64,000 bases of DNA from Octopus vulgaris (lineage: Eukaryota), in assembly GCA_951406725.2 (NCBI GenBank), contig OX597825.1, positions 43,586,001 through 43,650,000 on the forward strand, read 5' to 3'. The position numbers and the translations under genes were made by a program. The notes beneath the pieces were generated by a model that had not been told where the DNA came from, made no database searches, and worked only from the letters and a program-made list of their open reading frames with translations. This document shows positions 62,447-63,317 of this stretch, in pieces; the stretch's first letter is position 1, and each line of letters begins with the position of its first letter.

Positions 62447-63317
62447 ATAATAAATGGATAAAATTTTTATTAATTAAGTTGATTAATTAATTAATCAATT
62501 AATTAATAATTTCACCAAGTAGATCGGTACGTTAAAATAACCTTTATAGGTAAAATTATACAAATATTTTATAATTATGAACAATTATAATTAGGGTTCA
62601 GCTAATTGCTTCACCACATACCAATTCAGAAATAAGAGTTAAAATTTCCTTTTCTACTACTATAAGAATCTCCATGACGGTAACATACTTTTTTACGGAG
62701 GCAAAGAGAAAAAACAATGAATCAACACGACCAGGATTAACTATATACGCGTTTCGAGATTAAAGTGATTTAAATTTCACTTACTTCTCTCTTCGGTATA
62801 GAATTTTTAATTATAAAATTTGAAAGTGCTAGAGTTAAATATGCACACGATCGAGCGACATCATGTAATAGATATCCAACCAACACTTCCAAAATTTACA
62901 GGGCCGAATGTGAATACACTATATAACCCCTATACCCACGTGTATGCTACGAGCAGTACCACAGAAAACTGCAGTATTCTATTATGGAGTAAATTATAAT
63001 TTTGAATTAATAATAAAAGGGTAAAATTTATTAATTTAATTAATTAATTAATTAATCAATTAATTAATAATTTCACCAAGTAGATCGGTACGTTAAAATA
63101 ACCTTTACAGGTAATATTATACAAATATTTTATAATTATAAACATAATTATAATTGTTGATTCATTGTTTTTCACTTTGCCTTCGTTAAAAAGTAAGTTA
63201 CCGTCATGGAGATTCTTATAGTAGTATAAAAGGAATTTTAACTCCTATTTCTAAATTCTGTATGTGGTGAAACAATTAGCTGAACCCTAATTATTTTTAT
63301 AATCATAAAATATTTGT
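62447..63317 (-). mobile_element. Non-coding HHR element E3: partial tandem of a 561-nt unit plus inverted arm
   Basis: ttcaccaagtagatcgg at 62511 and 63072; 63155-63317 is an inverted copy of 62560-62727. Confidence 0.82.
62741..62801 (-). ncRNA. Hammerhead ribozyme variant (CCGAAGA core)
   Basis: ctata-CCGAAGA-gaga..agtga...tcact..tctc-GAAA-cgcg-TA-tatag: palindromic ACGCGT stem III, cleavage triplet GUA. Confidence 0.8.

Follow-up and report, generated by a model that had tools for sequence, protein, structure and literature searches.

An ORF-less, retrozyme-like hammerhead element with PLE-type insertion anatomy in Octopus vulgaris

The locus analysed here, E3, is an ORF-less element with a hammerhead ribozyme (HHR) at positions 62447-63317 of a 64-kb stretch of Octopus vulgaris DNA (contig OX597825.1), to which we refer as the window. 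Its sense strand is the minus strand, and a second element, E2, lies next to it. In our judgement E3 is probably one ageing insertion of a non-autonomous, ORF-less and retrozyme-like Penelope-like element (PLE) that was copied in trans. Insertions of PLEs are marked by a partial tandem, an inverted 5′ copy and a (TA)n target (PMC8557442). Since the anatomy of E3 follows this pattern and the mechanism described for the Anolis element PAc fits it, we read E3 as a non-autonomous PLE-type copy made in trans.

Results

Anatomy and borders of the E3 locus

A BLASTN comparison of the region with the window recovered a direct repeat, in which 62447-62592 matches 63010-63155 (148 columns, 91.9%, E 8e-56). 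It also recovered 63155-63317 as an inverted arm, the reverse complement of 62560-62727 (169 columns, 88.8%, E 8e-56). Both had been claimed in an earlier note made from the letters of this DNA, the repeat as 62447-62590/63010-63155 with a period of 561, and both were borne out. The gap-free period is indeed 561 (118 nt, 95%), and a 2-nt indel lengthens it to 563 at the outer end. E2 had also been placed less than 100 bp away across a TA/TG/TATG tract; it ends at 62361, leaving a gap of 85 bp. Read 5′ to 3′ on the HHR strand, E3 consists of the inverted arm, a 146-nt partial unit, one full unit and a (TA)n/(TATG)n tract. The tandem amounts to 1.26 units, the 146-nt upstream partial copy forming a pseudo-LTR (Table 1).

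Table 1 Features of the E3 locus and its neighbour, in window coordinates.
Feature	Position	Strand	Remarks
Full ORF-less unit, 561-563 nt	62447..63009	-	Genomic 3′ end at 62447, 299 nt past the HHR cleavage site
5′-truncated upstream partial copy	63010..63155	-	Pseudo-LTR-like repeat of 62447-62592
Inverted 5′ arm	63155..63317	+	Copies unit positions 62727 to 62560
Type I HHR with U4C core, long stem II with internal loop, palindromic stem III	62741..62801	-	Descriptor scan; predicted
Predicted long hairpin just 5′ of the HHR	62814..62898	-	E2 hairpin at the same place, partly in a different register
Predicted rod enclosing the HHR	62698..62937	-	Purine-rich 62937-62927 pairs with 62708-62698; also in the E2/E3 consensus fold
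3′ RNA domain (predicted)	62526..62622	-	Closing helix 62622-62616/62532-62526 and inner helix, with compensatory changes in E2
Terminal hairpin just before the 3′ end (predicted)	62455..62521	-	Led by a 14-mer identical in E2
(TA)(TG)(TATG) microsatellite	62362..62446	.	Abutted by the 3′ ends of both E2 and E3
TG/TA microsatellite flanking the inverted arm	63318..63417	.	Target-site duplication cannot be defined
Sister element E2, unit 546 nt	61460..62361	+	Main copy 61958-62361 (+), inverted part 61460-61960 (-)

Partial copy and arm have diverged from the body to the same extent: 8 of 144 aligned sites are substituted in the former (5.6%) and 10 of 162 in the latter (6.2%; Fisher p=1.0 for arm versus repeat), which fits a single insertion event. 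The arm prolongs the upstream unit in inverted orientation. The 3′ end of the arm falls 113 nt short of the main 3′ end of E3, unlike in the inverted pair at 6886-8850.

E3 inserted into AT-rich, microsatellite DNA, and the window altogether is AT-rich, microsatellite-rich animal-type DNA with many retroelement remnants. A region of 70% AT with palindromic (TTAA)n tracts, a 1-nt overlap at the arm junction and the duplication of 63121-63155 by the outer 30-35 nt of the arm would also suit a solitary PLE terminal fragment that was rearranged in the DNA, through duplication and inversion by template switching in AT-rich palindromes; the 561-nt period would then be no biological unit. We hold this to be quite improbable, because E2 matches E3 in period (546 nt), in phase and in the polarity of its inversion, and because predicted structure appears to be kept across ~50% divergence on the HHR strand only.

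The E3 unit (62449-63009) shows no CpG depletion, with an observed/expected ratio of 1.29 at 15 sites versus 0.71 for the window.

The hammerhead ribozyme of E3

A descriptor scan of the whole window returned six type I HHR matches, one of them that of E3 at 62796 on the minus strand. Its stem I pairs 62801-62797 with 62745-62741 (5 bp, minus strand) and is followed by the core CCGAAGA (62796-62790), a 34-nt stem II region, GAAA (62755-62752) and the palindromic stem III ACGCGT (62752-62747). Cleavage is predicted after GUA, between 62746 and 62745. Among 2000 dinucleotide shuffles of 62447-63317 there were eight relaxed matches and no strict one, the strict descriptor having been written after the motif was seen. 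The scan agrees with the earlier note in finding one HHR in the unit, on the minus strand, with this core and stem III. The same note had called the HHR well-formed, which holds for the descriptor match but not beyond it: the U4C core is non-canonical, the best predicted fold is inactive, and Rfam misses the HHR. Rfam gave no family at gathering score anywhere in the window, and at E<=10 its hits were microsatellite-driven and other sub-threshold matches with no hammerhead family among them. The predicted minimum-energy fold of the HHR adopts an inactive register at -16.6 kcal/mol, as against -10.5 kcal/mol for the active-compatible fold, so that the z of -4.0 obtained for the isolated HHR is no evidence for an active fold.

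Four of the six descriptor matches have a C4 core, namely E3, the main copy of E2 and both copies of the Hydra-type remnant with HHRs at 8762/6978, and C4 is therefore probably a lineage trait rather than decay. The left copy of E2 carries U4, which could have arisen by CpG decay of C4. The U4C change lowers HHR activity in vitro, yet supports viroid infectivity (PMC3088659). As eight of nine predicted Xenopus retrozymes showed no cleavage in vitro (bioRxiv 10.64898/2026.07.22.740005), activity of the E3 HHR cannot be assumed. PLE HHRs act as dimers and have a short palindromic stem III (PMC6765202, PMC4209133); the stem III palindrome of E3 is likewise predicted to be able to pair in trans. 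A second HHR is absent from both the direct repeat and the inverted arm. With this single HHR, the locus cannot itself excise a 561-nt monomer or circle.

Coding capacity and relatives in the window

By frames, tblastn and Pfam, no RT or endonuclease ORF was found in the E3 unit. The longest stop-to-stop frame wholly within E3 has 62 codons and the longest one around the circularised unit 60; none of nine frames matched Pfam at E<=1, and a six-frame tblastn search against the rest of the window gave a single match, from E2 (E 0.85). The full period is thus devoid of coding capacity, as had first been noticed, and E3 was rejected as an autonomous PLE of the Hydra, Neptune or Poseidon type because it has no ORF for a telomerase-like RT with GIY-YIG.

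BLASTN, nhmmer and the covariance model revealed no copies in the 64-kb window beyond E2 and E3. An 18.5-bit match of the E3 model at 12535-12702 was dismissed as a palindrome around a TA tract; this chance match comes from a long near-perfect palindrome at 12497-12610, centred on that tract. E3 gave no match in a plasmid collection, and a scan for bacterial promoters and terminators, which is unsuited to an animal genome, stayed at chance level.

E2 and E3 are diverged homologs

With their cleavage sites in register, the units of E2 and E3 can be aligned over their entire length, and E2 is also recovered (38.6 bits, E about 5e-7) by a covariance model that was made from E3 only. Both derive from one ancestor. 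About half of the aligned columns are identical (271 identities in 519 ungapped MAFFT columns). The post-cleavage halves (296 and 299 nt) reach a score of 65, a value that none of 1000 dinucleotide shuffles, 1000 local shuffles or 1216 window segments attained; when the common 3′ motif was left out, the corresponding counts were 0, 7 and 0. The signal in the pre-cleavage half without the HHR is weak, since scores as good came from 7 of 1000 dinucleotide and 58 of 1000 local shuffles as well as from 52 of 1218 segments of the window.

The genomic 3′ end follows the cleavage site by 299 nt in E3 and by 296 nt in E2, and the two ends are homologous positions. Both stop just before the word TAATTCA, which is internal to the unit, as the second copies of E2 and E3 reveal, and both continue into TA. 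The 14-mer that is identical in E2 and E3 occurs four times in the window, always within these two elements. On sequence grounds, E2 and E3 are diverged sister subfamilies of one old ORF-less lineage. The body of E3 had been described as differing from that of E2, a view that did not hold: the alignment and the E3-only model identify the two bodies as diverged homologs. Of the further proposal of an independent subfamily of the same system, the common system and the distinct subfamily stand, but independence does not, the units being colinear homologs.

Between the arms of E2, 4 of 258 and 0 of 101 sites differ; these arms are less diverged than those of E3, which makes E2 the younger insertion. 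The inverted part of E2 covers 501 of the 546 nt of the unit and leads from the 3′-end point straight to the HHR. At 61460 the inverted arm of E2 breaks off into an unrelated 110-nt segment (61351-61459), which is T-rich on the minus strand and ends in a TA/TATG tract; it represents either a second insertion or a template switch.

Predicted RNA structure of the unit

Folded as a circle, the E3 unit reached -140.5 kcal/mol in comparison to -99.8+/-4.8 kcal/mol for its shuffles (0 of 60 as low; z -8.6) and -89.1 kcal/mol for the antisense circle. The unit has a GC content of 29%, and 66% of its bases are paired in the predicted fold; the E2 unit folded with a z of -7.0. When the AT-rich hairpin was taken out, the E3 core still gave a z of -4.9 on the sense versus -0.8 on the antisense strand. 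A strand asymmetry as large as this was seen in only 2 of 145 window segments. Relative to their GC, 27 of 290 segment-strands surpass the E3 core in folding, and the 12 of these that are listed lie within inverted repeats and microsatellites.

The predicted folds of E2 and E3 have the same order, with the HHR near the tip of a rod, then the 3′ domain, then the terminal hairpin. The latter is better preserved in the upstream copy of E3, at 63077-63020. When the two units were folded separately, 35 of 188 E3 pairs came to lie within 2 columns of an E2 pair, against a null of 4.6+/-4.6 with a maximum of 15 in 40. The covariance model of the 3′ domain, made from E3 rows only, places E2 at 62174-62344 with 38.6 bits, as against 20.8 bits for a sequence-only model, although scores from the two models can be compared only roughly. 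All 13 pairs of the closing and inner helices are formed in both E2 and E3, with three two-sided and two one-sided changes. Measured against a letter-shuffle control, covariation in the 3′ domain was not significant (70 of 500 as good); the test had two informative rows, the third being a self-palindrome match, and its alignment was fitted to the model. An unanchored MAFFT consensus fold of E2 and E3 was not significant either (SCI 0.15, 7 and 8 of 60 shuffles as good). With anchors chosen by eye, the consensus fold reached -38.3 versus -16.3 and -17.6 for the controls (0 of 100 each) and -20.6 on the antisense strand. Taken from models that compare two families with one locus each, conservation of RNA structure between E2 and E3 is likely rather than proven.

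PLE remnants and other elements in the window

HHR-bearing PLE remnants are present in the same window, one of them with a U4C core like that of E3. A recent Hydra-type insertion at 6886-8850 consists of an inverted pair of 5′-truncated copies (829 nt at 99.5%), both of which (HHRs 8762/6978) have a U4C core and carry the HHR 37 nt from the 3′ end. The PLE remnant at 7935-8561 resembles, by eye, the published Hydra-1_Obim protein of Octopus (PMC8557442). A chimera or nest of two PLEs occupies 3700-6850. Here, an RT fragment at ~3700-4600 with a CxxxxCxxC-type linker runs into a Hydra-type ORF (4613-5677), which is followed by 1.2 kb of 3′ sequence; the HHR of the latter, at 6794, has a canonical core and lies 37 nt short of (TA)n. 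As a protein query, the Hydra-type endonuclease yielded 1 match among 164 candidates. On the minus strand, 49981-51279 holds a GIY-YIG PLE remnant with a degenerate HHR at 50295, ~281 nt from the microsatellite end; the linker of the remnant at 50818-51279 is read as Neptune-like, a label that follows a motif in PMC8557442.

E2 and E3 showed no sequence similarity to the untranslated ends of three PLE remnants in the window, namely two Hydra-type ends and the 281-nt end of the remnant near 50.8 kb. Two 11-nt motifs are absent from the available consensus files of PMC8557442, in which line breaks could hide a match.

These remnants bear on the reading of E3 as the 5′-truncated end of an autonomous PLE, with two tandem 560-nt units in its untranslated end and the ORF further 5′. 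Among PLE insertions, 5′-truncated ones with an inverted copy are the most frequent (PMC8557442), the window holds such an insertion at 6886-8850, and the degenerate HHR of the GIY-YIG remnant (50818-51279) lies at an E2/E3-like distance of ~281 nt from the 3′ end. This spacing is not accompanied by any similarity between E3 and the 281-nt stretch, however, and all 842 template nt of E3 are periodic with no coding trace. E2, moreover, has an identical ORF-less junction, and its inverted part spans nearly the complete unit (501/546 nt). We therefore regard an autonomous parent at this locus as unlikely, and retain the non-autonomous copy made in trans.

Further elements lie outside E2 and E3. 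A decayed element at 60378-61223, which we take to be of a mariner-like family, has 30-nt terminal inverted repeats and internal inverted repeats at 60474-60559/61009-61094 and 60562-60592/60942-60972. Three tandem units of 677-710 nt at 56480-58480 are 99-100% identical and contain an (ATT)n tract each; they adjoin a LINE RT fragment (55667-56314) and are probably repeated LINE 3′ ends. A near full-length LINE with frameshifted endonuclease- and RT-like frames is located at 43427-45958 on the minus strand.

With LINE remnants and the presumably mariner-like element (60378-61223) nearby, E3 could be imagined as a SINE-like or MITE-like element that owes its mobility to a LINE or to a DNA transposase and carries its HHR incidentally. 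HHR-bearing SINE-like elements have been described in schistosomes (PMC6765202). A tRNA-derived SINE was rejected, as E2 and E3 have neither a tRNA-like head nor a pol III B-box-like match: no tRNA gene was found, and the 15 B-box-like matches in the window all lie elsewhere. Furthermore, E3 has no poly(A) tail and no definable target duplication, and it has no terminal inverted repeat either, since its inverted arm lies internally and is not a counterpart of the left terminus. Mobilisation of this kind appears very improbable indeed.

Discussion

A model for the insertion of E3

The main copy of E3 crosses both the cleavage site (62746/62745) and the 3′-end point (63010/63009). Because it runs across its own cleavage site, its template was a circle or an uncleaved oligomer and not a linear, once-cleaved monomer. 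For PAc, reverse transcription begins at an internal stem-loop that lies downstream of where the HHR cuts (PMC11167929). Cutting and extension affect both strands of the AT-rich target DNA, and uncleaved RNA serves as the principal template (PMC11167929). A PAc-like internal start on an uncleaved template would account for the fixed 3′ end far from the cut, for the read-through and plausibly for the arm.

The following sequence of events is consistent with these data. A source locus with more than one unit would be transcribed on the HHR strand, and its RNA would persist either as an uncleaved oligomer or as a circle, the latter arising by cleavage at two HHRs paired through their palindromic stems III. 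A PLE RT/GIY-YIG protein acting in trans, a step suggested by the anatomy of E3 together with the biochemistry of PAc, may then bind the conserved 3′ domain and nick AT-rich DNA at (TA)n. Reverse transcription would begin internally, just 3′ of the terminal hairpin and ~297 nt past the cleavage site. As the sequence shows, copying crossed the cleavage site and then the start point again, leaving 1.26 units as a partial tandem. In the same event, the second nicked strand may have primed at another internal site, giving rise to the inverted arm. The resulting copy with its one HHR has drifted by ~3% per copy since, and for both reasons E3 is probably a dead end.

If the arm continues the upstream unit, the locus can be explained by a single template, 842 nt (1.5 units) or more in length. 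Its reach ends 18 nt before the upstream equivalent of the cleavage site, which lies ~860 nt from the 3′ end; as a single case, this shortfall hints at a linear 5′ end trimmed by the HHR. In E2 the reach is ~647 nt. The geometry of the arm is that of twin priming in L1, and our literature search found no PLE paper on twin priming.

Comparison with known systems

The E3-type system is not new in kind, as it matches non-autonomous PLE derivatives and animal non-LTR retrozymes. The latter are repeats that have a type I HHR but no ORF, and they are expressed as circular RNA (PMC7229834). E3 resembles them in being ORF-less and seemingly free of LTR, PBS and PPT, in its type I HHR, a GC below 50% and a highly self-paired predicted RNA, and in that PLEs co-occur. 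A 2026 preprint proposes that retrozymes derive from PLEs as non-autonomous forms, with units of 51-972 bp from which monomers have branched off (bioRxiv 10.64898/2026.07.22.740005). The 561 nt of E3 fall within this range, and monomer derivatives are described in that preprint. The E3 unit is longer than the 150-450 bp repeats of PMC7229834, however, and unlike animal retrozymes E3 has a PLE-type inverted arm and a U4C core. Whereas a strict retrozyme array contains at least two consecutive HHR units, E3 has 1.26 units and one HHR, for which reason we file it as a retrozyme-like, monomer-type derivative or non-autonomous PLE-type copy. Neither a fixed internal 3′ end nor a conserved 3′ RNA domain is described in the available portions of PMC7229834 and the 2026 preprint.

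Non-autonomous Chlamys with pseudo-LTRs, such as MRC1, have been described (PMC8557442), and E3 is like them in having no ORF, a pseudo-LTR from a partial tandem and a microsatellite target. The 3′ end of non-autonomous Chlamys generally resembles that of an autonomous family (PMC8557442), whereas no partner in the window matched E3; and while most Chlamys are without a canonical HHR (PMC8557442), E3 carries an HHR. With Hydra-clade PLEs, E3 shares the (TA)n target, an inverted 5′-truncated copy and the type I HHR (PMC8557442), and the Hydra-type remnant with HHRs at 8762/6978 also has the U4C core and a long interrupted stem II. Unlike E3, Hydra-clade PLEs encode RT and endonuclease (PMC8557442; remnants 4613-6850 and 6886-8850). 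The Hydra-type remnants end 37 nt past the cut in comparison to 296-299 nt in E2/E3, and all 26 of 26 Hydra rows in File S2 of PMC8557442, as far as available, have U4 where E3 has C4.

Like Poseidon PAc of Anolis, E3 has an AT-rich target and a 3′ end that fits an internal RT start at a stem-loop (PMC11167929). In PAc, which is autonomous, the start lies about 85-92 nt beyond the cut, at an AC-rich stem-loop inside its ORF (PMC11167929), whereas E2/E3 have a spacing of ~297 nt and a non-coding hairpin rich in AU. Pairs of HHRs on opposite strands, separated by 100-700 bp, had already been noted in 2014 (PMC4209133).

Among the papers found on PLEs, hammerheads and retrozymes in Octopus and cephalopods, none describes the E2/E3 family; the supplements of PMC7229834 and of the 2026 preprint may list the family or the U4C core.

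Implications

As the kind of element is already known, the value of E3 is mechanistic rather than categorical. Mobilisation of animal retrozymes by PLEs from circular RNA has been proposed, not shown, in the available portions of PMC7229834, PMC4209133 and bioRxiv 10.64898/2026.07.22.740005. The ORF-less copies of E2 and E3 bear the PLE insertion signature of partial tandem, inverted arm and (TA)n target. Beyond the first reading of this DNA, the analysis adds the common descent of E2 and E3, their common start point and a candidate RT-recognition structure. Two diverged subfamilies concur on the start of copying and on the adjacent predicted RNA structure, which points to a small candidate RT-recognition element, and the genome copies of E2 and E3 by themselves could serve to test a circular against a linear PLE template.

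More tentatively, and with more doubt than confidence, E2 and E3 may be the footprints of old, still mobile, viroid-sized (~550 nt), rod-like circular RNAs with a dedicated 3′ domain that was kept across ~50% divergence and directs the start of the PLE RT. If this were true, the E2/E3 family would constitute a natural minimal substrate that defines the cis-signal of PLE retrotransposition, and from its insertions one would be able to read which of the two templates, circles or linear oligomers, PLE enzymes copy.
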